Positions 1-63,590 of a stretch of 63,590 bases of DNA are shown here, piece after piece (the first letter of the stretch is position 1; the number at the start of each line of letters is the position of its first letter). Source of the stretch: Escherichia phage ECP2304; the sequence record OR880647.1. One strand, written 5' to 3'. A program made the position numbers and the translations under genes. The notes under the pieces were generated by a model. It was not told where the DNA came from. It did no database searches and worked only from the letters and a program-made list of their open reading frames with translations.

Positions 1-441
1 GAATAATTTATTCCTACTTGATAGAATAATGGAATCGGTACTCCAGAGCGCAAAAACCTAAAACTTTCAGTCAACAGACTAAAAACGGATAGAAACTAAA
101 AGTTAATAAGTAATAACATAAATATATATAAAATAAGGATTTATTAGTAATGTATATAGTACCTATTGGTATTATTTGAATGTTTTTGGGTCATTGTTAA
201 AAAGTCCCAAAACTCACAAAAAGTGAAAGAATACAATTCGTGACAGGATTGTTAATGGAATAAGGTGTATGGATATACAGTATTATTCCAGATTCCGGAA
301 TAATTGGAATAATGGAATAAATTATTGAACTATTGTGATCGGAAGGTATATCAAGCTATAATGCGCTTAATCGCGGGATATTGGAGGAGGACTTTATTGC
401 GCGGTTAACCGGACCAGTAGGAGGGCTGGCCCGGAAGTAGT

Positions 442-768
442 TTAGAGCTGTACAGGTGTGAAGTGGGCTAGCGTATCGTCGGACATAATACCCGACAGTT
501 TTTCGTTTACCCAGTCGGACCAAATGCTATCCGGTTCCTGGCGGTGCACAAACCAGATTTCGGATGTGCCTTCTTTGCGCATCGGTTGCACTTCTGCAAG
601 GAACTTGTCCTGCATAAGGCGCGTGAAGCAGACGCTGGTCATTGGAACCGGCTTTTCGTCTTTATTGTAATAAGGGACCAATATTTTATTTCCGAAGTCT
701 GCAACTTCATAAACTGTTCCTTTGCGAAGGCCTCTGATGTCAGTGTAAGAGCGGATGAACTTTTTCAT
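442..768 (-). CDS. hypothetical protein (108 aa)
   Basis: ATG start, clean ORF in minus-strand gene string inside repeat. Confidence 0.5.
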   Translation of the reverse strand: MKKFIRSYTDIRGLRKGTVYEVADFGNKILVPYYNKDEKPVPMTSVCFTRLMQDKFLAEVQPMRKEGTSEIWFVHRQEPDSIWSDWVNEKLSGIMSDDTLAHFTPVQL

Positions 769-770
769 AT

Positions 771-947
771 TTATTTCCTTACGAACACAGAGCCGACGAA
801 TAATGTTGATTGAGTTGCAGCTTGCTCGATTAATTCGCCAACAAGCTGGGACTGCGTCAGAGGTTTAAGGCCTTCTTTGGCGCGAGCTTCATTTACACGA
901 CGTTGAAGGTCTTTTAGGTATTGAGTTGCGAAACTATCTAATTGCAT
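771..947 (-). CDS. small hypothetical protein (58 aa)
   Basis: ATG at 945-947 preceded by AAGGA RBS; stop 771-773; below track size cutoff. Confidence 0.4.
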   Translation of the reverse strand: MQLDSFATQYLKDLQRRVNEARAKEGLKPLTQSQLVGELIEQAATQSTLFVGSVFVRK

Positions 948-996
948 CTTCTTATCCTTAGGGCTCCCGCAGAAGCCCGTTGAATGTGGTTATCGA

Positions 997-1146
997 CTAT
1001 AACGCTGCAAACATAAGCAGACGAATATTAACTGAAGTTTGGCTATTAAAGTCTTGACATTCTTTGATAATCTCTTCTTCACTTTTACCACTAAGTTTAG
1101 AATATTCTGTGATTGCTTGTTTTAATACAGAATCAAAATTGTTCAT
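997..1146 (-). CDS. small hypothetical protein (49 aa)
   Basis: ATG at 1144-1146 preceded by AAGGAGG RBS; translated by hand to TAG at 997-999. Confidence 0.45.
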   Translation of the reverse strand: MNNFDSVLKQAITEYSKLSGKSEEEIIKECQDFNSQTSVNIRLLMFAAL

Positions 1147-1156
1147 TTTATCCTCC

Positions 1157-1771
1157 TTATGCGTCCAGACCGTTGTATTTGCGCCAGGCGTAGAACTGAA
1201 TGGCGACAGTTGTTCCGTTGTAAGAAGGCATTGCAGCTTTCATCTCTTTCAGCGCCGGCGTGCGGCCCAGTTCCTTCAGAAGCTTGTCACCCATTGCCCA
1301 CACTTCGGCAGTTTTTCCTTTAAGGGGCTTGCGAGCGCCATTTTTGAAATCGCAGCGAGCAGCTTTTGCATCCTGTTTTGGAGCGGCAGCTTTTGGCTCT
1401 TCAATTTTGATTTCAGAAACCTGCGTGGCAGCTTTTGCGTGTTTCATATCTTTCTCTTCCTCCTGCTCCAAAGCTTTGAGGCAGCTTTTGACGATTTCCG
1501 GATTTACCATCGGGCGCAGTACCGAGGCGCTAGCAGCTGGAGCGGCGGTCGGTGCTGGGGCTTTCTGCTCCGGCTTTTGAGCTTTTTCGTGATCGCGCAG
1601 CACCTGAAGGACTTCCTTTTCGACGATGTAAAAACCGATATCGTCCTGATGGATAAGCTGTTCGTGTGCGTCGCGTGCAACCTGGCCCCAGCGAGTTTTC
1701 AGAGCGCGGCGTGCATTCGTTTTCATGGTGTAGCGCATTTTGTCCTGTTCGCGGTGAGTTACTTTAGACAT
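1157..1771 (-). CDS. hypothetical protein (204 aa), basic N-terminus and Ala/Pro-rich linker
   Basis: ATG at 1769-1771 preceded by AAAGGAG RBS; in-frame with track ORF 1157..1816. Confidence 0.6.
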   Translation of the reverse strand: MSKVTHREQDKMRYTMKTNARRALKTRWGQVARDAHEQLIHQDDIGFYIVEKEVLQVLRDHEKAQKPEQKAPAPTAAPAASASVLRPMVNPEIVKSCLKALEQEEEKDMKHAKAATQVSEIKIEEPKAAAPKQDAKAARCDFKNGARKPLKGKTAEVWAMGDKLLKELGRTPALKEMKAAMPSYNGTTVAIQFYAWRKYNGLDA

Positions 1772-1844
1772 GGTATAGCTCCTTTCGTTAATGTTAGTTT
1801 GCTTATTACTGCCCACCGTAATGATGAGCAGTGTATAAGAAAAC

Positions 1845-2093
1845 TTACTGCACGATTGCTACGAAATCGGCGGTTGCGATATCCATGCTTGCAAACGCTT
1901 TGACGGTGTAGCTGGTATCTGCCGCGGCGTTGAAGTCGCTCAGGAACTGTTGTACCGCGTGCTCATGGTTGAGCATTACGTCTACATTGCAGTCCCAGCT
2001 ATAAACCTTGCGCTGACCGAAACCTTTAACTGCAATACGCGCGCCTTTGGTGTTGGTTGGTGCCAAAAATTTGGTGACGATAGAAGTAGCCAT
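1845..2093 (-). CDS. hypothetical protein (82 aa)
   Basis: ATG with GAGGA RBS. Confidence 0.55.
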   Translation of the reverse strand: MATSIVTKFLAPTNTKGARIAVKGFGQRKVYSWDCNVDVMLNHEHAVQQFLSDFNAAADTSYTVKAFASMDIATADFVAIVQ

Positions 2094-2166
2094 GATGTAA
2101 TCCTCGTTTTGTTTAAGTTGACTTATTATTGCCCAGTCAGATCAACTAGGCAAGATATAAATCAGC

Positions 2167-2391
2167 TTATTTAACCATCAAGGCCCATCTTTTATAGCCG
2201 TTCAGCTCCATTCTATGACCGTGGTCGTTGCAGTAACGTTGGATATTATTAAAGTCGTTATCGTTCATATCGCTGACGTCAATATTAAAATAGTTGCGCT
2301 TTGCAGGTGTAACGTATTGGGATAACTGCATTGAGTACAGATGTTCAATGTTGTCGATAATAGCTTGCTGAACTTTAGTGATAGTAGCCAT
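2167..2391 (-). CDS. hypothetical protein (74 aa)
   Basis: Internal ATG at 2389-2391 preceded by GGAGGTG RBS; track ORF extends to 2451. Confidence 0.5.
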   Translation of the reverse strand: MATITKVQQAIIDNIEHLYSMQLSQYVTPAKRNYFNIDVSDMNDNDFNNIQRYCNDHGHRMELNGYKRWALMVK

Positions 2392-2781
2392 GATACACCT
2401 CCTAATGTGGTTAAGCAGTATTGCTTTGTTGAAGTAATAATAGCCTTGCATCGTGATATTGAATAGGCCAAACGTGCTATTTTGATATTGTTTTGCATCT
2501 AGTGAAAATCATGCTTGTATCGCATATTTAGCACTAATGGCCTAACTAACATCACACGATCTGGTCTACGCGCGTGCATACATACATATAAGGAGTGCCG
2601 GACAGGATCGGACCGACCAGGGGCGCTCAACCGTCTCTGTCCGTCCTGTAAGCTGGTCCCCGGACTGGTCCAAAATATTTTTATAAAAAGATGCAAAAAG
2701 GTGTAGACATATGATCAATCTAACCCTACTATATACACATACCGCAAGGGTACTACAAATTAACTTAAAGGGGTTTACATC

Positions 2782-2985
2782 ATGTCTATTCGTAGCGTTA
2801 TCTGTGTAATGGTTGCAAACAATAATTTTGGTTTCGTAGAAGGTGCAGAGTATAAAATGGATCTTAAGACTCGTTGCATTATTAAAGGTGAAGAGGAATG
2901 GCGTGCAGTGGTAGAAGATCGCGGCGATATCTACATCTATAGTTCTGATACAATGAAAACTATTGCCGTCTTCGAATTTAACTAA
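2782..2985 (+). CDS. hypothetical protein (67 aa)
   Basis: ATG with AAAGGGG RBS; first plus-strand gene after divergent intergenic region. Confidence 0.55.
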   Translation: MSIRSVICVMVANNNFGFVEGAEYKMDLKTRCIIKGEEEWRAVVEDRGDIYIYSSDTMKTIAVFEFN

Positions 2986-3053
2986 GCTAACTTATACAAT
3001 GGGCATTAGTACAGTGCCCATTAATAAGCTAACTAATTATAACGAGGTGTATT

Positions 3054-3239
3054 ATGTCTACGAACACTGTGAAGTCTGTAAATAATAGCAACAGAACATT
3101 TAAAGTTATCTATTATGGCGAATATATTGGAGACGTTACAGCTCCCAGCCGCATCGCTGCGGAAGACTTCGTCCGTACAGAGATGGAGCTTGGAATCGCC
3201 GATTTTGCAGCCATTATCGAACTGGTAGAGGTATTCTGA
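3054..3239 (+). CDS. hypothetical protein (61 aa)
   Basis: ATG with GAGGTG RBS. Confidence 0.5.
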   Translation: MSTNTVKSVNNSNRTFKVIYYGEYIGDVTAPSRIAAEDFVRTEMELGIADFAAIIELVEVF

Positions 3240-3240
3240 T

Positions 3241-3381
3241 ATGCAACGCAAATACACGCTTACACGCGCACAGCACGCGTTATTGATTGCAGCTATGCGC
3301 GCAGAATATGCAGTACACGGCTGGCATAGCGCCATGATGCGAGGTAAAAGCATATATGCAGACATATGCTCGCAAGAATAA
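3241..3381 (+). CDS. small hypothetical protein (46 aa)
   Basis: TGAtATG coupling to upstream gene; hand-translated to TAA at 3379-3381. Confidence 0.35.
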   Translation: MQRKYTLTRAQHALLIAAMRAEYAVHGWHSAMMRGKSIYADICSQE

Positions 3382-3944
3382 CGCACACAGCAGCACCACA
3401 GCGAGCTAAAGCTCAAAGGTAATGGTAATGCATTACCAACACACAATAAGCACGCTGTACCCAGCAAAGCGGCGCTAATTTCAACACTCACAGGCTGTAC
3501 GTTAACGCGTACGGCCTGCTCTGCTATATGCACGCCATGTATATAGCCAGCTCACAATGCACATCAATATAATTACGAATGAAATGGATTCGTCTGGAAG
3601 AATAACAATTCTTACAGTCACAGACCGGTCCAATGAGCCAACTCATAGACCCCACCTAGGATCATCAGGGTACTAATAATCACCCGAGGGCCCTTATCCA
3701 TCCTGATAGTAAGTGCTTGCCTAAATCTTACCCATCACTTTACTATCCACATACATCCATGACCCCACCTACCTTCTTTTTGAATATATTGCGCTCATCC
3801 TTTCTAAATATATGGATTTTGGTAGTAAATTCTGAGTCGTCAACGTATAATCCGTCTTGTAGCTGCCCCATAGCTACCATCTTTAAGCGGATGCAACCAA
3901 TTTCTATCAATTCTCACCAGTTTTAGAGCATCAAGGAGGTATTT

Positions 3945-4196
3945 ATGTGCGACTCCAGCGCAAGCACCACGACAAACTCCTCCAGCAATGTGGTTACAGA
4001 GGTAAATGCAATGCGATTAGGTCCATATCGCGGCTATTATGGTCGTGCTGCATGGAATGACGCTACTCAACGTTTTGAAGGCTGGATTATCTGCCCGGAA
4101 CGTGTTAAATTTCACTCCGTAAAAGAGAAAAACATCGTTCTTAATTTTCAAAAATGTGTCACTAAATATGTAGAGGAGCAAGAAGAATGCGTGTAG
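3945..4196 (+). CDS. hypothetical protein (83 aa)
   Basis: AAGGAGG RBS, ATG start. Confidence 0.6.
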   Translation: MCDSSASTTTNSSSNVVTEVNAMRLGPYRGYYGRAAWNDATQRFEGWIICPERVKFHSVKEKNIVLNFQKCVTKYVEEQEECV

Positions 4197-4438
4197 GGGA
4201 GGGTGAAAAGGTTGTCAACTATTTCGGGACTCAGGTTATAGTACCTGCCTGGGTTAACTGGCTCGCGGTTGATGAGTGTGAAGAGCTCTATGCTTATGAA
4301 AATGAGCCTTATATAGACGAATGCGACGATTACGACAAATGGTATGAGGATACGGGTAAATCCATCTTTATCGGCAAGTTTCCTTTCGAAGAAGGTTGTT
4401 GGGTAAATTCTTTAGTTAATGTTAGTTCGGAGGCTTAA
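4187..4438 (+). CDS. hypothetical protein, member of 3-copy paralog family
   Basis: Shares VPxWVxWLAxD...YxxExEP motif with 42828..43127(-) and 5013..5309. Confidence 0.6.
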   Translation: MRVGEGEKVVNYFGTQVIVPAWVNWLAVDECEELYAYENEPYIDECDDYDKWYEDTGKSIFIGKFPFEEGCWVNSLVNVSSEA

Positions 4439-4717
4439 ATGCTTGTAGAAGAGATTGTTGAAGGTAAAGAGTATCGTTTACTGACCGATATTGGTGGTGT
4501 TGGGTATGCTCCGGGCGATGGTGTTGAGTTCCGGGAACTGAAAGCTGGTTCTATTGTTACTGTTAATAAGGTGGTGTTTGATCTGCATAGCCTTTTCGGG
4601 CAGTGGAACCATACTGTAATTGTTAGCCAGGGTAGCGATGAATACGATGAAGAAGAGGATGCTTACGAAATCAGTTATACTGGTCTTGTAGGCGCCAATT
4701 TCCTGGAAGAAGTATAA
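4439..4717 (+). CDS. hypothetical protein (92 aa)
   Basis: Start overlaps upstream stop (TAAATG); clean ORF. Confidence 0.55.
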   Translation: MLVEEIVEGKEYRLLTDIGGVGYAPGDGVEFRELKAGSIVTVNKVVFDLHSLFGQWNHTVIVSQGSDEYDEEEDAYEISYTGLVGANFLEEV

Positions 4718-4767
4718 TTATCAATCTATAATGGGCTCTACGGAGCCCTTAATTATCTGGAGGAGAT

Positions 4768-5010
4768 GTGTTTCCGCGGAATGGTTTAAAGTGGACCGCA
4801 AGGGATCTTGCTTTGCTAAAGGTCAACGCTGGCAAGATTTCGGCGGAAGAAATAGCTTACTATCTTAGAAGAGACGTTGAATCTGTACATATCAAAGCAA
4901 GTAGGCTAAAGTTGTCCTTAGTAACAAACAGGTGCAAGCGCGGGCACGAACGGGTATACCGCAAAGGGCGCTGGCGCTGCAATGAATGTCGTAAACTTAA
5001 AGGGTACTGA
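4768..5010 (+). CDS. hypothetical zinc-ribbon protein (CxxGH...CxxC)
   Basis: GTG start after GGAGGAG; C-terminal CKRGH..RCNEC motif resembles N-terminal zinc module of the HNH protein at 38512..39069. Confidence 0.45.
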   Translation: MFPRNGLKWTARDLALLKVNAGKISAEEIAYYLRRDVESVHIKASRLKLSLVTNRCKRGHERVYRKGRWRCNECRKLKGY

Positions 5011-5012
5011 CT

Positions 5013-5309
5013 ATGTTGTATTTAGGAATGGATGAAACTGGACACGAAATTCCTTCTGTTAGCAAAGAGACGCAAGTATTTACCGACCATTATGGGTCTA
5101 CTATCCCTGTTGAGCCTTGGGCTAAATTTGTGGCTGTAGACGCAGATGGTAAAGTTCATTGCTATGACGGAAAACCTTATTCCTATAAAGCTGGTAGGCA
5201 ATGGATGATTGGTTGTGATGGTACAAAAGTTCGTTACTGCGGTGAAGTTGACCTTGAAGGTATGGACTGGCGTGATACTCTAATGGAGATTAAACATGTC
5301 CGCGGCTGA
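5013..5309 (+). CDS. hypothetical protein, member of 3-copy paralog family
   Basis: Shares VPxW..AVD and EVDLEGMDW motifs with 42828..43127(-). Confidence 0.6.
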   Translation: MLYLGMDETGHEIPSVSKETQVFTDHYGSTIPVEPWAKFVAVDADGKVHCYDGKPYSYKAGRQWMIGCDGTKVRYCGEVDLEGMDWRDTLMEIKHVRG

Positions 5310-5385
5310 AGTTACGACATTTATAATAGCTTTTGCGGTTGCTTTATTTCTTCTAGCTAAGTTAGATTTATTTATTTGGTGACTT

Positions 5386-5610
5386 ATGCGGTTACTTATG
5401 GTTATTGGCGTTATAATTGCCGCTTTCGTCATATTTGCAATGGTGGACTCTAAAGAAATGGAGCGGCAAAATTGTCAACGTACTGGTAACAGCCGGGATG
5501 ATATCATTTGGCAATATATTTACGATGCAAAAGGTAATGTTATGTCAATGTATCCTCAGGTTATTACTGAGTATGAATATAAATGCAATGACCGTAACAG
5601 GTGGAGATAA
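5386..5610 (+). CDS. hypothetical membrane protein (74 aa)
   Basis: N-terminal hydrophobic helix. Confidence 0.5.
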   Translation: MRLLMVIGVIIAAFVIFAMVDSKEMERQNCQRTGNSRDDIIWQYIYDAKGNVMSMYPQVITEYEYKCNDRNRWR

Positions 5611-5612
5611 TA

Positions 5613-5885
5613 ATGGAAGTTACTGAAGCTGCTAAACGCATGGTGAAATTCTATGTTGGTTCTGATTCACCTTTAATCCGCGCTTTTGGGCAAGAGCTTT
5701 ATATATTTCAAGGAGAAAGAGAAGAAGCTGAAGATGTTGCTCAGAAGATTCTTGATTTACAAGAAAAAGCTAAACGGGCGGATGCCCTGGAATCTGTAGC
5801 AAAGGACTTCCTGCGTCGTAATAAATATGGTCCTTTGTTCTACCGTGATTTGTATAATCGTTTTAAGGAGATTTTAGGTGATTGA
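5613..5885 (+). CDS. hypothetical protein (90 aa)
   Basis: ATG at 5613 after GGAG; overlaps upstream stop (TAATGG). Confidence 0.55.
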   Translation: MEVTEAAKRMVKFYVGSDSPLIRAFGQELYIFQGEREEAEDVAQKILDLQEKAKRADALESVAKDFLRRNKYGPLFYRDLYNRFKEILGD

Positions 5886-5939
5886 ACAAGAGCTCTTACA
5901 CTGGAAAGATTTCATTAAAGAAATGCTAGGAGACAAATA

Positions 5940-6410
5940 ATGGCTGACGTTAAAACTATTGTTGATGCAATGGACGAATCCAAAGACTGCCAACTGAAGA
6001 AGTCGTTTGAGGTAAAACAGGTTACAGAAACGCAGTTGATAGCCAACTTTGCGCGTTATTGCGGATTGGGTCGCGGGAAGGACTGGAATGGGCTTATTGT
6101 TATGCCCACATCACAGATCCTTGTCTATGTCCGTAATGTTGTAGAAGATCTTTTACGTCTTCAAATAGATATTGGTGACGTAGAAATTAACATGACCGCG
6201 AGCTCCACCATTGTGGTTAAATGGCAGTCGGGCGAGACCCTTCGTTTGGAAGCGTGTCATTGTGCTAAGAGCTTGCACCACCTGCGCGGTTGTCACTACC
6301 AGTTTGTTGGGTTTGTGCATCTACAAGGGTTAAGCGGGCGTACGGCGATGGTAGCGCGTTTGCTGCTGCGTCCTTATAATAACGAGCCGGAAGTCATATA
6401 CGAGGCATAA
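5940..6410 (+). CDS. hypothetical protein (156 aa)
   Basis: Clean ORF with RBS. Confidence 0.6.
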   Translation: MADVKTIVDAMDESKDCQLKKSFEVKQVTETQLIANFARYCGLGRGKDWNGLIVMPTSQILVYVRNVVEDLLRLQIDIGDVEINMTASSTIVVKWQSGETLRLEACHCAKSLHHLRGCHYQFVGFVHLQGLSGRTAMVARLLLRPYNNEPEVIYEA

Positions 6411-9345: not shown

Positions 9346-9903
9346 ATGAACGGGGCAAGTCAAGAGCAATATGATCGTGACTGGACGAACTATATCCAGT
9401 ATGCAAATAGCTTGTCCGCTGACGAGATGGCAATACGTGACAAAGTTGTTGCTGAGTATATGTTCGACTACAATTGGACTAACGCTTGCATGAGATGCGG
9501 GTTCAATGCTATGTTTGCACAGGAGCTTGGCCAACGCTTTGCCACGGACTGTTACGTTCGATGGAAGCTCAAGGAGATTGAAAGATCCCGTGTTCAACGT
9601 ACTTCTGAGCAAGCTAACATTGAAGCAGACCTAGAGCGTCAGCATATCATTGAAGCATTAAAACGTGAAGCTCATTATACAGGACCGGGATCTTCTCAAG
9701 CTGCTAGAGTAGCCGCATTGGGCAAGCTTGCACAAATTTATGATTTGGATGCGCCCAAGAAGGCTAAAATTGATGTTACTAACAGAGGCGGCGTAATGAT
9801 AGTCCCTGCTGTAGCAAATATTGACGAATGGGAAAAAAATGCATCCGAGTCTCAACAACGACTAGTTAAAGAGACTGAAGATGGAGCTAAACCGACAACC
9901 TGA
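9346..9903 (+). CDS. putative terminase small subunit
   Basis: 185-aa ORF immediately upstream of and overlapping terminase large subunit. Confidence 0.45.
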   Translation: MNGASQEQYDRDWTNYIQYANSLSADEMAIRDKVVAEYMFDYNWTNACMRCGFNAMFAQELGQRFATDCYVRWKLKEIERSRVQRTSEQANIEADLERQHIIEALKREAHYTGPGSSQAARVAALGKLAQIYDLDAPKKAKIDVTNRGGVMIVPAVANIDEWEKNASESQQRLVKETEDGAKPTT

Positions 9904-11440
9904 TAACATGCCGCGAGTAGTCTGGAAGCCACATCCAGGTTCACAGACGCTCGCTTTATCCTGTCCTGCTGATATCATTTTATACCACGGTACTCGCGGT
10001 CCTGGAAAGACGGACTGCCAGCTTATGCGTTTCCGTAAGAATGTTGGCGTAGGGTACGGTAAATTCTGGAAGGGTATTATATTCGATCGTGAATATAAAA
10101 ACCTTGATGACCTTGTAACCAAATCACAGCGTTGGTTCCCTGAATTTAAAGATGGTGCTAAATTCCTTAGCTCGAAGTCTGATTATAAATGGGTTTGGCC
10201 CACTGGGGAAGAATTGCTGTTCCGTGTTGCTTGCAAAGAAAAGGATTATTGGTCTTATCATGGTCACGAATACCCGTTTATCGGATGGAACGAATTAACA
10301 AAGTATCCGGACGGGCGTTTGTTTGAAGCAATGATGTCCTGTAACCGTTCATCATTCCTACCCGAAGATAATCCAATTATCAATCCGGACGGTACTGTCA
10401 CATATCTACCAGACATTCCTCTGGAAGTATTTGCTACCAGTAACCCGTTTGGTGCGGGGCATAACTGGGTTAAGAAACGCTTCATTGATGCTGCACCGAT
10501 GGGTAAGATACTCAGGAAAACTACGCGAGTGTTTAACCCGCGGACGCAGAAAGAGGAAGATGTGGTTACGACGCAATGTCATATCTTCGGATCTTACCGC
10601 GAGAACAAAAACCTGAGCCCGAAATATATTGCAGAGCTTATGTCCATCACAGACCCGAACAAACGAGCTGCATGGTTAGGCGGTAGCTGGGATATCACCT
10701 CCGGCGGTATGTTCGATGATCTGTGGCGTAGCACTGTTCATAAAATACGCCCATTCCCAATCCCATCAAGCTGGAAGATTACACGCTCTTTCGACTGGGG
10801 TTCTTCAAAACCATTCTCCGTTGGCTGGTGGGCTATTAGTGACGGTTCGGATGTTGTACGTGAGGATGGTACTACATTCTCTACTGTTCGCGGTGACTTA
10901 TTCCGTATTAACGAGTGGTACGGCACTAACGGTAAAACAAACGAAGGCCTACATTTGCTGGACTCAGAGATTGCAAGCGGTATACTGGAGCGGGAATTGG
11001 CCTGGGCTATACACGACCGTGTAGTTCCTGGACCTGCGGATAACTCTATTTGGGATCTGGAGAACAATAACTCTACCGCCGCAACAATGGCGAAGAAAAT
11101 CCGTCTTAACGGCAAGCTGTATAACGGCATCCATTGGAAGAGAAGTGATAAATCCGCTGGGTCGCGTAAACGCGGATGGCAGAAAATGCGTGAGTTTCTT
11201 AAAGCTGCATTGCGGGAAGATGCAAACGGTAAACCTTTGCCGGGGCCACGTGAAAATCCAGCAATGTATGTTTTCGATAACTGCAATTATTTCTTTGAAC
11301 TGGTTCCAAGTCTTCCGCGTGATGAAGTAGATCAGGACGACGTTGATACGGAATGTGAAGACCATATGGGCGATGAAGTACGTTATATGGTTCTGGATCA
11401 AGCTGTTTATACTGGTGTCGGTAGAACTATCGGTATTTAA
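9881..11440 (+). CDS. terminase large subunit
   Basis: Walker A-like GTRGPGKTD; about 519 aa; upstream of portal; alternative ATG at 9908. Confidence 0.8.
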   Translation: MELNRQPDNMPRVVWKPHPGSQTLALSCPADIILYHGTRGPGKTDCQLMRFRKNVGVGYGKFWKGIIFDREYKNLDDLVTKSQRWFPEFKDGAKFLSSKSDYKWVWPTGEELLFRVACKEKDYWSYHGHEYPFIGWNELTKYPDGRLFEAMMSCNRSSFLPEDNPIINPDGTVTYLPDIPLEVFATSNPFGAGHNWVKKRFIDAAPMGKILRKTTRVFNPRTQKEEDVVTTQCHIFGSYRENKNLSPKYIAELMSITDPNKRAAWLGGSWDITSGGMFDDLWRSTVHKIRPFPIPSSWKITRSFDWGSSKPFSVGWWAISDGSDVVREDGTTFSTVRGDLFRINEWYGTNGKTNEGLHLLDSEIASGILERELAWAIHDRVVPGPADNSIWDLENNNSTAATMAKKIRLNGKLYNGIHWKRSDKSAGSRKRGWQKMREFLKAALREDANGKPLPGPRENPAMYVFDNCNYFFELVPSLPRDEVDQDDVDTECEDHMGDEVRYMVLDQAVYTGVGRTIGI

Positions 11441-55910: not shown

Positions 55911-58247
55911 TTATTTGCTTAAGTCCTTGAAAACACTCTCAATTGACTCGTCTATATACCATCCCAATCCCCTGAAATTACGCTTCAACGCATCTTCACG
56001 CGTGACTGGAACGAGCGCACCCATGTCTACAAGTTGCTTGATGGTAAGGTCTGTTGCAGTACCTGCTCCCATCCTGTGATTCTTGAATGCTGCTAGACCG
56101 TAGGTTCTGCGTGTGATAGTTGCCTTTGGAATAATACCGTCAACGCGCAGCTCCTTACGATCACATGCAATCTTACCGCCAAGATAGTCTTTGCAGACCT
56201 GACAGATAGCCTTCACACGTGTTTCGTCATCACCGCCAATAGTACCTTTTTCCCATGCGTTGATCATAATGTCCTGACCGTGCGTAACAAAATCTACCGC
56301 CCATTGCATGTGGTTTGGTTGCACCACAGGATTGATCCAGTTTTCCCCCACCGCTAACAGAGAAGCAAGACGCAAAGCTTTAAGGTGTGCACGGTTCCAA
56401 GGCTGACGGATTGCTTCGTCTTTGGTTGCGTTAATGTGTTCGTCACATAACAGGTTAAACTCCCGTTCAATCCTTTCAGCTTCAGGACTTAACTGGACTG
56501 TGACAGTTTGAAACTTCGCCATTGTTACTAAGGTGTGGTTAACAAGATGGCACACCATGTCCTTTAACTGCTGGGGCATTATAATCTCAGGGTTTTCGTT
56601 TGCAGGAACTCGATCTCCTTCATATTGCACAATGTGGAAACGGGACAAGAAACCGTCTTCCATCATTTCACGGGTTAATGCTTCAAAGAAAGTGTCCGGT
56701 GTTGTTTCTCCCAGCACGCTGAACGCTACCCCTTCCATCGTTTTGGTATTATTAGCCTTATCAGAATATCCAATACCGCCAACAACATCCATTGCGCCAG
56801 ATTTTTGATATACATCTGTGATAGTTTGCTTCAGAGTATAGTTTGCAGTACCGGGCTGAGCTGTTGCCATACCTTTGATGGTTTTGCCAAACTCTCCGTT
56901 AATGTTCACAAACGAACTATGATCCGCAAAACTTTTACGCAATGCAGGACCGGACGCATAGTTAGTCATGTCTACAAATTCATGAACTTGCGGTAATTGC
57001 TCCCCTACTTGCTTGCAAATATAGCTGGGTCCGGCGTGAAGCATCTCTTTACCCACACCTGAGCGAGCGATAAGCACAAAGTAACCGTTCAGCCCTGTGT
57101 TGGTGATAGTATTCCATACCTTACCGCACACACCAGACAGAAATGCTAACGATGCGGTGATTGCAATTTCTTTCACGGGACGTTGCGATGCTTTGTAGAT
57201 GTACTTCGCAAGCTCCCCAGCAAGCCCCGGCGGCCACTCAATAGCGGTTGCATCAATAGACGTACTTTCTGCAACTACTATTTGACCGGAAGGACTAACT
57301 GTGGTTACAGGCATCTCTGTTACTTGCTGCATTGTGCTGTGTGCGGCTTGCATACGGGCAGCATAATCTCGCGCCAGCGCCGCTACGTTTTCCTGGGCAA
57401 TGCGCTCACGCTCCATGCGACCGCGGCACATCCGCAAACAACGGTCAATATGAACATTGTTCTTATTAGCCTTCTCACGTTTGCCCAGTGCACTGTAACG
57501 GAACAGACGGCGACATTGCTCATTACTTTCTGTATAGAATGCATACATAGAAATAAGAGCAAGGTCTGCTTCAGACTGGGAAGGGAATCCCATTTCAACC
57601 CATTCACCATTGAATAGGCGTGCATACTTATCCCCGTTGTCCGCTTCAAGCGCGCGCTGGTGAATAGTTGCATCGTCTTCTACCGGATCTTTTTCTACCA
57701 GTTCAATTTCATATGTCTTGCGCTGAAGATCAATTTCATTCACAAGCATAGTAAGATAATGATCGCGTTCGGCAACTGGTTTGTTATAGACAGGATTACC
57801 CGTGCAGATAATAAAACGCTCCTGACTATAAACTTCGACACCATCACGTCGACGACCTTTGCCGATGTTTCCTCTTAACCACAGGTGAACACCCAAGCCT
57901 GAGCGACTTACTTCGGTGTAAGTATCGAACGCGGTCATGATCTGTTCGAAGCGGCGCAACTGTTCCGGCGTCGTGTGCTTCTTGGGATCTGGTTCATTGG
58001 TTGCGTTCTTTACATCCAGGTCGATGCAGGTGAACGGGTCTTGTGCAGTAAGCACGAAGCCTATATAAGGTTTGTTGAAATGAGCAGCACAACCTTTGGC
58101 AGCTTCAAACGTCATAAGCATATCCGGATCGGTAACGTCCGCTGCCATCAAACGTCCGATATCGTTGTCCCATATTAATGGGCGTTTATCTTCACCAGCA
58201 ATAGCCCACTGATTGTATTGTTTAATTTCATCAGGAAATAATTTCAT
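55911..58247 (-). CDS. DNA primase-helicase (PrimPol-like N-terminus, SF3/D5-like helicase C-terminus)
   Basis: 778 aa; acidic DxD-type motif TCIDLDV, GVHLW; Walker A ARSGVGKE; ATG at 58245-58247. Confidence 0.6.
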   Translation of the reverse strand: MKLFPDEIKQYNQWAIAGEDKRPLIWDNDIGRLMAADVTDPDMLMTFEAAKGCAAHFNKPYIGFVLTAQDPFTCIDLDVKNATNEPDPKKHTTPEQLRRFEQIMTAFDTYTEVSRSGLGVHLWLRGNIGKGRRRDGVEVYSQERFIICTGNPVYNKPVAERDHYLTMLVNEIDLQRKTYEIELVEKDPVEDDATIHQRALEADNGDKYARLFNGEWVEMGFPSQSEADLALISMYAFYTESNEQCRRLFRYSALGKREKANKNNVHIDRCLRMCRGRMERERIAQENVAALARDYAARMQAAHSTMQQVTEMPVTTVSPSGQIVVAESTSIDATAIEWPPGLAGELAKYIYKASQRPVKEIAITASLAFLSGVCGKVWNTITNTGLNGYFVLIARSGVGKEMLHAGPSYICKQVGEQLPQVHEFVDMTNYASGPALRKSFADHSSFVNINGEFGKTIKGMATAQPGTANYTLKQTITDVYQKSGAMDVVGGIGYSDKANNTKTMEGVAFSVLGETTPDTFFEALTREMMEDGFLSRFHIVQYEGDRVPANENPEIIMPQQLKDMVCHLVNHTLVTMAKFQTVTVQLSPEAERIEREFNLLCDEHINATKDEAIRQPWNRAHLKALRLASLLAVGENWINPVVQPNHMQWAVDFVTHGQDIMINAWEKGTIGGDDETRVKAICQVCKDYLGGKIACDRKELRVDGIIPKATITRRTYGLAAFKNHRMGAGTATDLTIKQLVDMGALVPVTREDALKRNFRGLGWYIDESIESVFKDLSK

Positions 58248-58248
58248 C

Positions 58249-58773
58249 TTATACACCCAATTTGTTACAACCGTGGTTCTTGTGAAAATTGTAATCGGTT
58301 AATGCTTTACTTACAGCCATTTGTGCATCTTCAAAAGTATCGTATACTCCAAGATATTTTGAAGTCCCGTCGACGCCTATACGAGCTTGCCATTTATTAG
58401 TACCTTTGTGAAATGTAACTCCATTTACTCCAGAGGTATTATTGCGTTTCTTACTTTGATTTCGTCCATTTTCTTTGTGAGTAACAAGACGCAAGTTTTC
58501 AATGCGGTCGTCGTAACGAATGTGATTAATATGGTCTATTTCCATACCTTCCGGTATTGGACCATTATGCATTTCCCATACTATGCGTGAACGGCGATAT
58601 AGTTTGCCTTTAAGAGCAATACGAACATATCCTTTATCCGTAAGCGTACCTGCAACGCAACCTTCTTTCGCTCTTGCGCCCATATCTTTCTTCCAATACA
58701 ACACTCCTTCATTATATTGGAATATTACCGCCCATTGTGGGAAAGCTTTAATTTCAGCGGGAAACAGTTCCAT
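58249..58773 (-). CDS. HNH homing endonuclease with AP2 DNA-binding domain
   Basis: HNH motif EIDHINHIRYDDRIENLRLVTHKEN; AP2-like SGVNGVTFHKGTNKWQARI. Confidence 0.7.
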   Translation of the reverse strand: MELFPAEIKAFPQWAVIFQYNEGVLYWKKDMGARAKEGCVAGTLTDKGYVRIALKGKLYRRSRIVWEMHNGPIPEGMEIDHINHIRYDDRIENLRLVTHKENGRNQSKKRNNTSGVNGVTFHKGTNKWQARIGVDGTSKYLGVYDTFEDAQMAVSKALTDYNFHKNHGCNKLGV

Positions 58774-59507: not shown

Positions 59508-59613
59508 ACCTACCTCCTAACAGCACTATACACAATCCATAGTAATGCATCCACAATTATTCCACCTGAAGTTATGATGTGAGAGGATTGTTAATATATA
59601 ACCACATGTGATG

Positions 59614-59704
59614 GAAAGTTTTGGGTAGGAATAGTTGGTGCTCCACAGTTTGCGCAATGTGACCGAAAGTTTTGTGAGTTTTGCGAAGTTTTGCGAAGTT
59701 TTGT
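59614..59704. repeat. Array of GA(A)AGTTTTG direct repeats in right-end non-coding region
   Basis: Five copies including tandem GCGAAGTTTTGCGAAGTTTTG at 59681-59701. Confidence 0.7.
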
Positions 59705-59761
59705 GGTGCCACTGTTGCTAAAAACTTTAATAAAAACAATAAGTTGGTGCAGTAAGTTTTT

Positions 59762-59787
59762 GCGTTTTGGGGTAAAACGCATTTTTT
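59762..59787 (+). terminator. terminator-like hairpin in right-end non-coding region
   Basis: GCGTTTT-GGGGT-AAAACGC followed by ATTTTTT. Confidence 0.4.
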
Positions 59788-60336
59788 ACCCTAACACCCA
59801 AATCCCGACTGTTAGTAAAAAACGTATATAAATCAATAGCATAGATACTAAATGAATAGTGATTGGAATGGGTAGAAATCCAAATGATGGAAGTGGAATA
59901 ATTTATTCCTACTTGATAGAATAATGGAATCGGTACTCCAGAGCGCAAAAACCTAAAACTTTCAGTCAACAGACTAAAAACGGATAGAAACTAAAAGTTA
60001 ATAAGTAATAACATAAATATATATAAAATAAGGATTTATTAGTAATGTATATAGTACCTATTGGTATTATTTGAATGTTTTTGGGTCATTGTTAAAAAGT
60101 CCCAAAACTCACAAAAAGTGAAAGAATACAATTCGTGACAGGATTGTTAATGGAATAAGGTGTATGGATATACAGTATTATTCCAGATTCCGGAATAATT
60201 GGAATAATGGAATAAATTATTGAACTATTGTGATCGGAAGGTATATCAAGCTATAATGCGCTTAATCGCGGGATATTGGAGGAGGACTTTATTGCGCGGT
60301 TAACCGGACCAGTAGGAGGGCTGGCCCGGAAGTAGT

Positions 60337-60663
60337 TTAGAGCTGTACAGGTGTGAAGTGGGCTAGCGTATCGTCGGACATAATACCCGACAGTTTTTCG
60401 TTTACCCAGTCGGACCAAATGCTATCCGGTTCCTGGCGGTGCACAAACCAGATTTCGGATGTGCCTTCTTTGCGCATCGGTTGCACTTCTGCAAGGAACT
60501 TGTCCTGCATAAGGCGCGTGAAGCAGACGCTGGTCATTGGAACCGGCTTTTCGTCTTTATTGTAATAAGGGACCAATATTTTATTTCCGAAGTCTGCAAC
60601 TTCATAAACTGTTCCTTTGCGAAGGCCTCTGATGTCAGTGTAAGAGCGGATGAACTTTTTCAT
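60337..60663 (-). CDS. hypothetical protein (repeat copy of 442..768)
   Basis: Identical duplicate in right repeat. Confidence 0.5.
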   Translation of the reverse strand: MKKFIRSYTDIRGLRKGTVYEVADFGNKILVPYYNKDEKPVPMTSVCFTRLMQDKFLAEVQPMRKEGTSEIWFVHRQEPDSIWSDWVNEKLSGIMSDDTLAHFTPVQL

Positions 60664-60665
60664 AT

Positions 60666-60842
60666 TTATTTCCTTACGAACACAGAGCCGACGAATAATG
60701 TTGATTGAGTTGCAGCTTGCTCGATTAATTCGCCAACAAGCTGGGACTGCGTCAGAGGTTTAAGGCCTTCTTTGGCGCGAGCTTCATTTACACGACGTTG
60801 AAGGTCTTTTAGGTATTGAGTTGCGAAACTATCTAATTGCAT
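60666..60842 (-). CDS. small hypothetical protein (repeat copy of 771..947)
   Basis: Identical duplicate. Confidence 0.4.
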   Translation of the reverse strand: MQLDSFATQYLKDLQRRVNEARAKEGLKPLTQSQLVGELIEQAATQSTLFVGSVFVRK

Positions 60843-60891
60843 CTTCTTATCCTTAGGGCTCCCGCAGAAGCCCGTTGAATGTGGTTATCGA

Positions 60892-61041
60892 CTATAACGC
60901 TGCAAACATAAGCAGACGAATATTAACTGAAGTTTGGCTATTAAAGTCTTGACATTCTTTGATAATCTCTTCTTCACTTTTACCACTAAGTTTAGAATAT
61001 TCTGTGATTGCTTGTTTTAATACAGAATCAAAATTGTTCAT
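60892..61041 (-). CDS. small hypothetical protein (repeat copy of 997..1146)
   Basis: Identical duplicate. Confidence 0.45.
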   Translation of the reverse strand: MNNFDSVLKQAITEYSKLSGKSEEEIIKECQDFNSQTSVNIRLLMFAAL

Positions 61042-61051
61042 TTTATCCTCC

Positions 61052-61666
61052 TTATGCGTCCAGACCGTTGTATTTGCGCCAGGCGTAGAACTGAATGGCG
61101 ACAGTTGTTCCGTTGTAAGAAGGCATTGCAGCTTTCATCTCTTTCAGCGCCGGCGTGCGGCCCAGTTCCTTCAGAAGCTTGTCACCCATTGCCCACACTT
61201 CGGCAGTTTTTCCTTTAAGGGGCTTGCGAGCGCCATTTTTGAAATCGCAGCGAGCAGCTTTTGCATCCTGTTTTGGAGCGGCAGCTTTTGGCTCTTCAAT
61301 TTTGATTTCAGAAACCTGCGTGGCAGCTTTTGCGTGTTTCATATCTTTCTCTTCCTCCTGCTCCAAAGCTTTGAGGCAGCTTTTGACGATTTCCGGATTT
61401 ACCATCGGGCGCAGTACCGAGGCGCTAGCAGCTGGAGCGGCGGTCGGTGCTGGGGCTTTCTGCTCCGGCTTTTGAGCTTTTTCGTGATCGCGCAGCACCT
61501 GAAGGACTTCCTTTTCGACGATGTAAAAACCGATATCGTCCTGATGGATAAGCTGTTCGTGTGCGTCGCGTGCAACCTGGCCCCAGCGAGTTTTCAGAGC
61601 GCGGCGTGCATTCGTTTTCATGGTGTAGCGCATTTTGTCCTGTTCGCGGTGAGTTACTTTAGACAT
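61052..61666 (-). CDS. hypothetical protein (repeat copy of 1157..1771)
   Basis: Identical duplicate. Confidence 0.6.
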   Translation of the reverse strand: MSKVTHREQDKMRYTMKTNARRALKTRWGQVARDAHEQLIHQDDIGFYIVEKEVLQVLRDHEKAQKPEQKAPAPTAAPAASASVLRPMVNPEIVKSCLKALEQEEEKDMKHAKAATQVSEIKIEEPKAAAPKQDAKAARCDFKNGARKPLKGKTAEVWAMGDKLLKELGRTPALKEMKAAMPSYNGTTVAIQFYAWRKYNGLDA

Positions 61667-61739
61667 GGTATAGCTCCTTTCGTTAATGTTAGTTTGCTTA
61701 TTACTGCCCACCGTAATGATGAGCAGTGTATAAGAAAAC

Positions 61740-61988
61740 TTACTGCACGATTGCTACGAAATCGGCGGTTGCGATATCCATGCTTGCAAACGCTTTGACG
61801 GTGTAGCTGGTATCTGCCGCGGCGTTGAAGTCGCTCAGGAACTGTTGTACCGCGTGCTCATGGTTGAGCATTACGTCTACATTGCAGTCCCAGCTATAAA
61901 CCTTGCGCTGACCGAAACCTTTAACTGCAATACGCGCGCCTTTGGTGTTGGTTGGTGCCAAAAATTTGGTGACGATAGAAGTAGCCAT
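61740..61988 (-). CDS. hypothetical protein (repeat copy of 1845..2093)
   Basis: Identical duplicate. Confidence 0.55.
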   Translation of the reverse strand: MATSIVTKFLAPTNTKGARIAVKGFGQRKVYSWDCNVDVMLNHEHAVQQFLSDFNAAADTSYTVKAFASMDIATADFVAIVQ

Positions 61989-62061
61989 GATGTAATCCTC
62001 GTTTTGTTTAAGTTGACTTATTATTGCCCAGTCAGATCAACTAGGCAAGATATAAATCAGC

Positions 62062-62286
62062 TTATTTAACCATCAAGGCCCATCTTTTATAGCCGTTCAG
62101 CTCCATTCTATGACCGTGGTCGTTGCAGTAACGTTGGATATTATTAAAGTCGTTATCGTTCATATCGCTGACGTCAATATTAAAATAGTTGCGCTTTGCA
62201 GGTGTAACGTATTGGGATAACTGCATTGAGTACAGATGTTCAATGTTGTCGATAATAGCTTGCTGAACTTTAGTGATAGTAGCCAT
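62062..62286 (-). CDS. hypothetical protein (repeat copy of 2167..2391)
   Basis: Identical duplicate. Confidence 0.5.
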   Translation of the reverse strand: MATITKVQQAIIDNIEHLYSMQLSQYVTPAKRNYFNIDVSDMNDNDFNNIQRYCNDHGHRMELNGYKRWALMVK

Positions 62287-62676
62287 GATACACCTCCTAA
62301 TGTGGTTAAGCAGTATTGCTTTGTTGAAGTAATAATAGCCTTGCATCGTGATATTGAATAGGCCAAACGTGCTATTTTGATATTGTTTTGCATCTAGTGA
62401 AAATCATGCTTGTATCGCATATTTAGCACTAATGGCCTAACTAACATCACACGATCTGGTCTACGCGCGTGCATACATACATATAAGGAGTGCCGGACAG
62501 GATCGGACCGACCAGGGGCGCTCAACCGTCTCTGTCCGTCCTGTAAGCTGGTCCCCGGACTGGTCCAAAATATTTTTATAAAAAGATGCAAAAAGGTGTA
62601 GACATATGATCAATCTAACCCTACTATATACACATACCGCAAGGGTACTACAAATTAACTTAAAGGGGTTTACATC

Positions 62677-62880
62677 ATGTCTATTCGTAGCGTTATCTGT
62701 GTAATGGTTGCAAACAATAATTTTGGTTTCGTAGAAGGTGCAGAGTATAAAATGGATCTTAAGACTCGTTGCATTATTAAAGGTGAAGAGGAATGGCGTG
62801 CAGTGGTAGAAGATCGCGGCGATATCTACATCTATAGTTCTGATACAATGAAAACTATTGCCGTCTTCGAATTTAACTAA
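62677..62880 (+). CDS. hypothetical protein (repeat copy of 2782..2985)
   Basis: Identical duplicate. Confidence 0.55.
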   Translation: MSIRSVICVMVANNNFGFVEGAEYKMDLKTRCIIKGEEEWRAVVEDRGDIYIYSSDTMKTIAVFEFN

Positions 62881-62948
62881 GCTAACTTATACAATGGGCA
62901 TTAGTACAGTGCCCATTAATAAGCTAACTAATTATAACGAGGTGTATT

Positions 62949-63134
62949 ATGTCTACGAACACTGTGAAGTCTGTAAATAATAGCAACAGAACATTTAAAG
63001 TTATCTATTATGGCGAATATATTGGAGACGTTACAGCTCCCAGCCGCATCGCTGCGGAAGACTTCGTCCGTACAGAGATGGAGCTTGGAATCGCCGATTT
63101 TGCAGCCATTATCGAACTGGTAGAGGTATTCTGA
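62949..63134 (+). CDS. hypothetical protein (repeat copy of 3054..3239)
   Basis: Identical duplicate. Confidence 0.5.
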   Translation: MSTNTVKSVNNSNRTFKVIYYGEYIGDVTAPSRIAAEDFVRTEMELGIADFAAIIELVEVF

Positions 63135-63135
63135 T

Positions 63136-63276
63136 ATGCAACGCAAATACACGCTTACACGCGCACAGCACGCGTTATTGATTGCAGCTATGCGCGCAGA
63201 ATATGCAGTACACGGCTGGCATAGCGCCATGATGCGAGGTAAAAGCATATATGCAGACATATGCTCGCAAGAATAA
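63136..63276 (+). CDS. small hypothetical protein (repeat copy of 3241..3381)
   Basis: Identical duplicate. Confidence 0.35.
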   Translation: MQRKYTLTRAQHALLIAAMRAEYAVHGWHSAMMRGKSIYADICSQE

Positions 63277-63590
63277 CGCACACAGCAGCACCACAGCGAG
63301 CTAAAGCTCAAAGGTAATGGTAATGCATTACCAACACACAATAAGCACGCTGTACCCAGCAAAGCGGCGCTAATTTCAACACTCACAGGCTGTACGTTAA
63401 CGCGTACGGCCTGCTCTGCTATATGCACGCCATGTATATAGCCAGCTCACAATGCACATCAATATAATTACGAATGAAATGGATTCGTCTGGAAGAATAA
63501 CAATTCTTACAGTCACAGACCGGTCCAATGAGCCAACTCATAGACCCCACCTAGGATCATCAGGGTACTAATAATCACCCGAGGGCCCTT

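Follow-up and report, generated by a model that had tools for sequence, protein, structure and literature searches.

Introduction

Phage T7 carries a 160-bp non-coding terminal repeat and has its own RNA polymerase. In mosaic phages, exchangeable modules are separated by elements such as the boundary sequences of the lambdoid phages or the promoter-stem-loop cassettes of the T4 type. Phage T5 has a repeat of 10 kb and is characterised by two-step injection. At the inner end of this repeat lies Repeat Region 3, with the injection-stop signal. This untranslated region measures 1.2 kb, overruns 270 bp into unique DNA and contains eight paired DnaA boxes, 131-bp duplicated inverted repeats and DRD arrays (bioRxiv 10.1101/866236, Davison). 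A repeat of 1,091 bp has been reported for the related Pseudomonas phage iggy, and in the same paper the large terminase subunit (TerL) of Seuratvirus falls in one clade with that of a phage with a direct terminal repeat (DTR; PMC10484667).

The window described here, that is, the whole stretch of 63,590 bp from Escherichia phage ECP2304, is a complete linear genome of the genus Seuratvirus (Queuovirinae), and the locus of interest is the gap between genes at positions 3382-3944. The reading favoured here, with moderate confidence, is that this gap is a junction made up of a hairpin linker, an exchangeable cassette, a fixed right end and a conserved block with transcription signals. The junction spans a real and conserved repeat boundary, and the palindromes that drew attention to it are minor. 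A terminal-repeat junction is an ordinary kind of feature; it is newly described for the genus within the searchable literature, in which nothing specific was found on the termini, promoters or transcriptomes of Seuratvirus and Nonagvirus.

The likeness to T5 Repeat Region 3 consists of a long, gene-bearing DTR with an untranslated inner end that holds inverted repeats and palindromes, an overrun into unique DNA of similar size (270 bp in T5, approximately 250 bp here) and an untranslated region more conserved than the neighbouring ORFs of the repeat. However, the repeat is of 3.7 kb here, and a region of 1.2 kb, the eight paired DnaA boxes, the duplicated inverted repeats and the DRD arrays have no counterpart; nor are seuratviruses known to inject in two steps. 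With the concatemer junctions of T7 and T3 the locus shares an exact repeat, fixed ends, presumed sequence-specific cuts at both boundaries and promoters close by; it differs in the length and gene content of the repeat, in having only host-type promoter signals and in the lack of sequence similarity. The closest parallels are the DTRs of other Queuovirinae (iggy, HdK1 and yong3), which also end in a non-coding region before rightward unique genes. The iggy repeat, compared by its reported length, is three times shorter, and HdK1 has the G-rich, GGGGCG-like end common to the seuratviruses of E. coli but no detectable similarity at the junction beyond it. Finally, as at the boundaries of mosaic modules, two conserved islands (3378-3435 and 3697 onward) flank two unrelated alleles and hold hairpin and promoter elements; unlike the promoter-stem-loop cassettes, the linker is not repeated elsewhere in the genome, and unlike ordinary mosaic modules, the exchangeable segment has the physical end of the genome as one of its edges.

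The genome and its terminal repeat

According to megablast, the nearest kin of the window belong to Seuratvirus (Seurat, CAjan, SLUR25, BASEL Bas21 and others), at approximately 90-96% identity in the gap region, and no identical record was found in the phage collection. The two linear ends are identical in sequence, which is the mark of a DTR genome: positions 1-3695 equal 59896-63590 with 0 mismatches, and this exact repeat of 3,695 bp bears out the boundary at 3695/3696 claimed in the earlier note. The DTR carries approximately nine small genes, with PHROG matches only to families of unknown function. Outside it, small plus-strand genes run from 3945 to approximately 9300 and are followed by the genes for the small (TerS) and large terminase subunits, the portal and the tail, and the replication genes lie on the minus strand at 33-59.5 kb. 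The genes that matter for the present analysis are the following:

3241-3381, plus strand: last gene inside the DTR, 46 aa, phrog_37795 (E=4e-30), annotated in relatives; left edge of the gap
3945-4196, plus strand: first gene outside the DTR, 83 aa, phrog_24875 (E=3e-58)
9346-9903: TerS, phrog_5334
9881-11440: TerL, PF03237, weak match

Within the repeat, a 279-aa open frame (1064-1903, plus strand) lies antisense to a 219-aa repeat gene (1157-1816, minus strand, phrog_22313) and is probably a spurious shadow ORF. The left DTR boundary falls within an AT-rich non-coding region of approximately 830 bp (59508-60336, equal to 59508-59895 plus 1-441), which is crowded with repeats, namely GGAATAAT boxes in both orientations and RAAGTTTTG repeats. 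The left end of the genome starts within the near-palindrome GGAATAATTTATTCC, and ATGGGTAG, common to the window and yong3, occurs approximately 21 nt before the left end of yong3. This region is a candidate for the origin, the left packaging site or both. No motif common to the left (59895/59896) and right DTR boundaries was found (p = 0.12 and 0.98).

The gap between the flanking genes

At the inner end of the repeat lies a large untranslated region of 563 nt, of which 314 nt are within the DTR and 249 nt outside it; the repeat boundary thus falls inside the gap, as had been claimed. The gap is truly non-coding, because no ORF in it has a match, the existing annotations disagree, relatives carry indels and the RNA and repeat scans gave no match. 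The PHROG scan gave 0 matches for the six ORFs (39-166 aa) overlapping with the gap; both flanking genes are PHROG-supported, and the GenBank annotators differ on the strand, start and length of the ORFs that they place there. In an alignment of 27 sequences, the relatives show indels of 1 and 2 nt and one 31-nt insertion in 3697-3944. A scan of positions 1-6000 against Rfam at E<=1 gave no match, and neither the tRNA/tmRNA scan (ARAGORN) nor the tandem-repeat scan (TRF) found anything. These results support the earlier statement that no credible ORF lies between 3381 and 3945. The early timing given there to the first unique gene is an assumption. The plus strand is rich in C around the boundary: the C/G ratio is 1.8 over 3600-3699 and 3.4 over 3700-3799, and both values rank near the top for that strand. 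The composition of 3600-3800 would fit an untranslated leader or a Rho-loading site, for which some 80 nt or more of untranslated RNA rich in C and poor in G would be expected.

The right genome end

The sequence around the boundary holds the following features:

3695/3696: right DTR boundary, which is the right genome end and the inferred position of the terminase cut, placed by the exact repeat, by the position in yong3 and by homology with the second cassette type (type B, below) that resumes at 3697
3697-3711, plus strand: TCCATCCTGATAGTA, the first unique bases, which hardly vary among the 27 sequences and have one copy in the genome
3648-3658, plus strand: first copy of the GACCCCACCTA box, which starts 47-48 nt before the repeat end
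3669-3674, plus strand: GGTACT box, approximately 27 nt before the end, invariant in four diverged lineages
3761-3771, plus strand: second copy of the GACCCCACCTA box, 66 nt after the boundary

The main comparison is with Hafnia phage yong3 (OM868075.1), a diverged and independently sequenced Seuratvirus that has an exact terminal repeat of 3,424 bp. Its right boundary reads ...GGGTTGGGAT / GTCCATCCTGATAGTA and that of the window ...GAGGGCCCTT / ATCCATCCTGATAGTA, and both DTRs stop one base before the invariant TCCATCCTGATAGTA, at the same position of the alignment; in both cases the position of the boundary is read from how the record was built. The yong3 record was deposited as circular, yet it holds its repeat twice, and the record of HdK1 likewise holds its own twice. 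Among the Seuratvirus records of relatives that were found, the repeat is present twice in yong3 only, and the others have a single copy and arbitrary starts. The position of the boundary is conserved in an independently sequenced relative, and the end of the Nonagvirus HdK1 (MK373794.1) is comparable: its 3,367-bp repeat ends, after a GGGGCG-rich end, within a non-coding region of approximately 640 nt.

The boxes at the boundary are common to four diverged lineages. Sequences like GACCCGACCCA occur at the same distance before the end in type B, yong3 and Salmonella phage STP-SP5, so that a box GACCCnACCyA stands 47-48 nt before the end in both cassette types and in these two phages, and the second box is retained in yong3 and STP-SP5 as CCCCACCyACCT. 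In the genome, GACCCCACCTA is commoner than chance (4 matches versus 0.49 expected). The mean pairwise identity reaches 98.2% at 3641-3695 and 97.7% at 3752-3920, against 92-95% in the flanking genes. One sequence, SLUR75 (locus L140, 225-245), is a hybrid: its type B cassette passes into a type A-like end (...GCCTT/ATCC) in the final 4-5 nt ahead of the boundary.

The exchangeable terminal cassette

Between the linker and the boundary, the window carries one of two cassettes, named here type A:

3436-3696: type A terminal cassette, 261 nt; approximately 15 relatives examined have type B instead
3491-3518, plus strand: hairpin with a 12-bp stem and a 4-nt loop (-20.6 kcal/mol, z -5.4), which encloses GTACGTTAACGCGTAC
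3544-3573, plus strand: sigma-70-like promoter TAGCCA-N18-TATAAT (10/12 hexamer positions), type A only, with the -10 hexamer conserved in type A

In blastn comparisons, homology to Seurat, CAjan, RCIP0359, CSP1C and KS_W4 stops at 3435 and resumes at 3697. These five phages and ten further sequences make up type B, a GC-rich cassette of 124 nt with GCACAGC repeats, and all 15 type B sequences examined differ from the window up to the boundary and match it after. Type A comprises the window, seven GenBank records and four metagenome contigs. The possibility that the two types are diverged homologues was rejected, given that their local alignment is not significant (p = 0.24) and that they share only the equally spaced short boxes.

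The earlier note had placed a second palindrome, with nested palindromic sites, at 3463-3478. The sequence in question, GTACGTTAACGCGTAC, is found 34 nt away, at 3497-3512, and is imperfect: it is the centre and tip of the hairpin with the 12-bp stem. This hairpin is retained in all type A relatives and the restriction-site palindromes inside it are not, since GTTAAC/ACGCGT is lost in most of them, which read ...AACTCG... instead. The annotators of SA126VB independently marked the cassette hairpin as a terminator and the site at 3544-3573 as a promoter. The hairpin fails the definition of an intrinsic terminator because no U-tract follows: the stem at 3491-3518 is followed by CUCUGCUA and that at 3423-3438 by ACACACAA, and a scan for intrinsic terminators on the plus strand found none inside 3382-3944. 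An inverted repeat over the -35 hexamer (GCTATATGCA/TGTATATAGC, 3523-3547) was also considered and discarded; half of the type A relatives lack it, and the substitutions there are not compensatory.

In Skure (locus L009, 2099-2572) and Dru_SM1 (locus L133, 2074-2547), a gene for an HNH homing endonuclease replaces the conserved promoter block, starting approximately 43 nt right of the boundary (approximately 3739-3986 of the window), and HNH genes are also found within the repeat in CAjan, KS_A3 and KS_S4. The mosaicism at the junction may be driven by homing.

The linker and the 16-bp palindrome

To the left of the cassette lies a short conserved island:

3378-3435: conserved linker of 58 nt, ATAACGCACACAGC...GGTAATGGTAATGCATTA, present with both cassette types, between flanks that differ
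3418-3429: tandem repeat GGTAAT GGTAAT
3423-3438: perfect 16-bp palindrome TGGTAATGCATTACCA, with its last 3 nt in the type A cassette

The linker appears as a blastn island (3378-3435) in Seurat, RCIP0359, CSP1C and KS_W4, and the homology of CAjan is unbroken from 3240 to 3435. The perfect palindrome is located where the earlier note had seen it. The GGTAAT repeat said to precede it is indeed present in tandem, at 3418 and 3424, but the palindrome takes in the second copy as its left arm. Folded as RNA, the palindrome gives a stem of 7 bp (-9.2 kcal/mol, z -2.5). The genome has no other perfect palindrome of 16 bp (this one occurs once per repeat copy), and first-order Markov simulations give an expectation of 1.10 per genome and a probability of at least one of 0.66; the palindrome is no rarer than chance gives and, alone, is unremarkable. 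Copies, near-copies and half-sites elsewhere in the genome were not found beyond chance. In a metagenome scan with the 16-mer CCATCCTGATAGTAAG as query, the matches were mostly due to chance (5 of the 120 loci are seuratviruses), and a scan of viral contigs gave two loci only. In the genome as a whole, perfect palindromes are depleted among 12-mers (8 observed versus 16.9 expected) and 14-mers (2 versus 4.35 expected), which is consistent with the avoidance of restriction sites.

Conservation of the palindrome, proposed earlier as a check, holds for one part of it: the 10-bp core is present in most relatives, while the outer right arm is replaced in type B and the element is absent at this place in yong3 and STP-SP5. 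Because the palindrome straddles the cassette junction, approximately 15 relatives keep only TAATGCATTA; the type B junction reads TGGTAATGCATTAgct and has only that core in common with the window. Other lineages have a hairpin at the same position of the linker, formed by GAGCTAATG...CATTAGCTC in type B and by GAGCTAGCCC...GGGCTAGCTC in STP-SP5. The z-scores at this position are -3.7 in the window, -2.8 in Seurat (type B) and -5.0 in STP-SP5, and the hairpin of yong3 is weak (z -1.0). Between type B and STP-SP5 the stems differ by paired changes (GAGCTA-ATG/CAT-TAGCTC versus GAGCTA-GCCC/GGGC-TAGCTC), which suggests selection for pairing. We infer that a hairpin comes after the last rightward gene of the DTR and that the palindrome represents its type A form; such a linker hairpin would most likely work in the RNA, where it would define the 3' end or contribute to stability.

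The conserved block right of the boundary

The sequence that precedes the first unique gene holds several putative signals:

3752-3920: nearly invariant non-coding block of approximately 170 nt
3823-3851, plus strand: rightward sigma-70-like promoter TAGTAA-N17-TATAAT; STP-SP5 has TAGAAA-N17-TATACT in the same alignment columns
3816-3843, minus strand: leftward sigma-70-like promoter TTGACG-N16-CAAAAT; yong3 has GTGACG-N16-TAAAAT in register
3859-3877, plus strand: leader hairpin GTAGCT-N7-AGCTAC; in some relatives a C>T change in the 3' arm keeps the pairing as G-U
3933-3947, plus strand: Shine-Dalgarno sequence AAGGAGG and ATG of the first unique gene

Pairs of -35 and -10 hexamers with a spacer of 16-18 nt, as expected for sigma-70, are found in the gap at 3544-3573, 3823-3851 and 3843-3816, and the leftward site is the best-scoring of the region. 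The -35 hexamers are weak, and promoter calls are no commoner here than in shuffled sequence (4 found versus 5.2 expected). The conservation in register of the two opposed sites was seen in a position-weight scan of four diverged sequences. At the place of the leader hairpin, STP-SP5 has GTACC...GGTAC. The block could be conserved purely as promoter and leader. The boxes TCCATCCTGATAG and AAATTCTGAGTCGTCA were ruled out as dispersed promoter motifs, both being single-copy in the genome.

Alternative explanations

The idea that the palindromes are operators for a dimeric phage regulator of the first unique gene, which was that of the earlier note, draws on the perfect dyad symmetry of the 16-bp palindrome and on the presence of its TAATGCATTA core and the preceding GGTAAT repeat in all the E. 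coli seuratviruses examined. An operator would be expected to have both half-sites conserved, to adjoin a promoter and, usually, to occur in several copies. However, the outer 3 bp of the right arm are replaced in type B, nothing of the kind is found at this place in yong3 and STP-SP5, there is no second copy or family of half-sites, and about one such palindrome per genome is given by chance. Moreover, the nearest promoter-like site is approximately 105 nt downstream of it, and the conserved promoters are approximately 400 nt away. A role of the palindromes as sites for regulatory proteins is thus very doubtful; the 16-bp palindrome is probably no special operator, and it is not the feature to pursue. 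It has also to be considered that it has no function of its own and is a by-product of the event that joined linker and type A cassette, such as recombination or repair driven by a homing endonuclease. The cassette junction (3435/3436) does fall inside a palindrome of chance-level frequency, SLUR75 is a hybrid close to the repeat boundary, and the HNH insertions to the right of the boundary (Skure and Dru_SM1) and elsewhere, in the CAjan repeat, indicate that the region is recombination-active. This explanation is a possible one, if on balance unlikely, since different lineages maintain some hairpin at this position and the paired changes between type B and STP-SP5 point to selection on pairing.

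With respect to the gap as a whole, it is highly unlikely that it conceals a gene for a small protein or for a structured non-coding RNA. Open frames do exist (3717-3926, plus strand, 69 aa; 3743-3910, minus strand, 55 aa) and some GenBank records annotate ORFs there, an untranslated RNA of approximately 300 nt could start from the leftward promoter-like site, and the plus strand is strongly C-rich in 3600-3800; yet the inconsistent annotations and the 1-2-nt indels of relatives argue against a gene, and neither PHROG nor Rfam (E<=1) provides a match for either. The most improbable of the alternatives is that the region works like the injection-stop signal of T5, with a pause in DNA entry at the inner end of the DTR. 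Such a function would agree with a long repeat with approximately nine small genes, with a large, hairpin-bearing untranslated region that lies mostly in the repeat and overruns it by approximately 250 nt, and with the intermediate sensitivity of seuratviruses to daunorubicin, which blocks T5 after first-step transfer. Against it, no recognisable homologues of A1 and A2 were seen, the repeat genes matching only PHROGs of unknown function, long duplicated inverted repeats are missing, and paired DnaA boxes in such repeats were not found in the region, where a single 8/9 match (3743-3751) is not conserved.

Proposed mechanism

The favoured reading, that of a modular junction at a fixed right end, can be put in terms of four modules. 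The 58-nt linker after the last repeat gene would be the first of them, ending in a hairpin-forming element that is here the 16-bp palindrome and, in other lineages, would be a different stem at the same place. Next would come a swappable terminal cassette, represented in the window by type A with its 12-bp-stem hairpin and sigma-70-like promoter. The third module would be the fixed end at 3695/3696, bracketed by GACCCCACCTA, GGTACT, TCCATCCTGATAGTA and the second GACCCCACCTA, and the fourth the block of approximately 170 nt, in which two putative promoters overlap in opposed orientation and which also includes the leader hairpin and the first unique gene's ribosome-binding site.

According to this proposal, the terminase (TerS and TerL) would cut replicated concatemers at 3695/3696, and each cut would create the right genome end. 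The enzyme would take its guidance chiefly from conserved sequence of the unique side, and for this reason the terminal cassette would be exchangeable. The conservation of position, together with a terminal sequence that can be replaced, points to both a cut at this place and a reading from the unique side. Transcription of the rightward operon by host RNA polymerase would begin in the conserved block, type A phages would also use the cassette promoter, and the linker hairpin would most likely mark or stabilise the 3' end of the rightward transcripts of the DTR. A more ambitious version, in which the right end is set from the unique side by TCCATCCTGATAGTA and the downstream boxes, the cassette is left free and the junction is perhaps a T5-like entry stop, is distinctly doubtful.

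An abundant octamer and the primase

The scan for DnaA boxes brought to notice the 8-mer TGTGGTTA, by far the commonest of the genome, with 49 copies in the 59.9 kb of unique sequence versus approximately 1.8 expected for a random 8-mer (29 on the plus strand and 20 on the minus strand). The copies are spaced by approximately 1.2 kb (985, 2406, 3989, 6212 ... 59599, for example) and lie within genes, without conservation of their flanks; in sense orientation, 24 of 27 are read in the frame xxT-GTG-GTT-Axx. The octamer is also enriched in yong3 and in seuratviruses of IMG/VR.

The primase-polymerase of NrS-1 recognises TTTGGTTA, with GTGG as a second site (PMC8718748). The octamer is one base off the former and contains the latter. 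The window encodes a protein of 781 aa (55911-58256, minus strand) in which residues 11-200 match the structures of NrS-1 primase (6A9W, 6K9A and 7RR3; E about 1e-8), and which also has a Pfam NrS1-1_pol-like HBD domain and DUF3987. On the strength of these matches, the protein is likely the replicative primase-polymerase/helicase, and TGTGGTTA probably marks the priming sites of this enzyme of the phage itself. This observation may deserve more attention than the junction.

Implications for the genus

The true ends of Seuratvirus genomes, a group of phages in wide use (CAjan, Seurat and BASEL Bas20-25), have gone unnoticed because most GenBank records omit the repeat and start arbitrarily. 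The location of the right end would explain why the homology between relatives breaks exactly there. Fixed to one nucleotide beside an invariant motif, this end supplies a practical rule for orienting and completing genomes and a defined target for the study of how terminases form fixed ends. If the unique-side reading were true, the last 120-260 nt of virion DNA would be an exchangeable cassette able to carry its own promoter, and a pause like that of T5, if it occurred, would give the genes of the repeat a head start; each of these properties would be a novelty among the small siphoviruses of the Queuovirinae.
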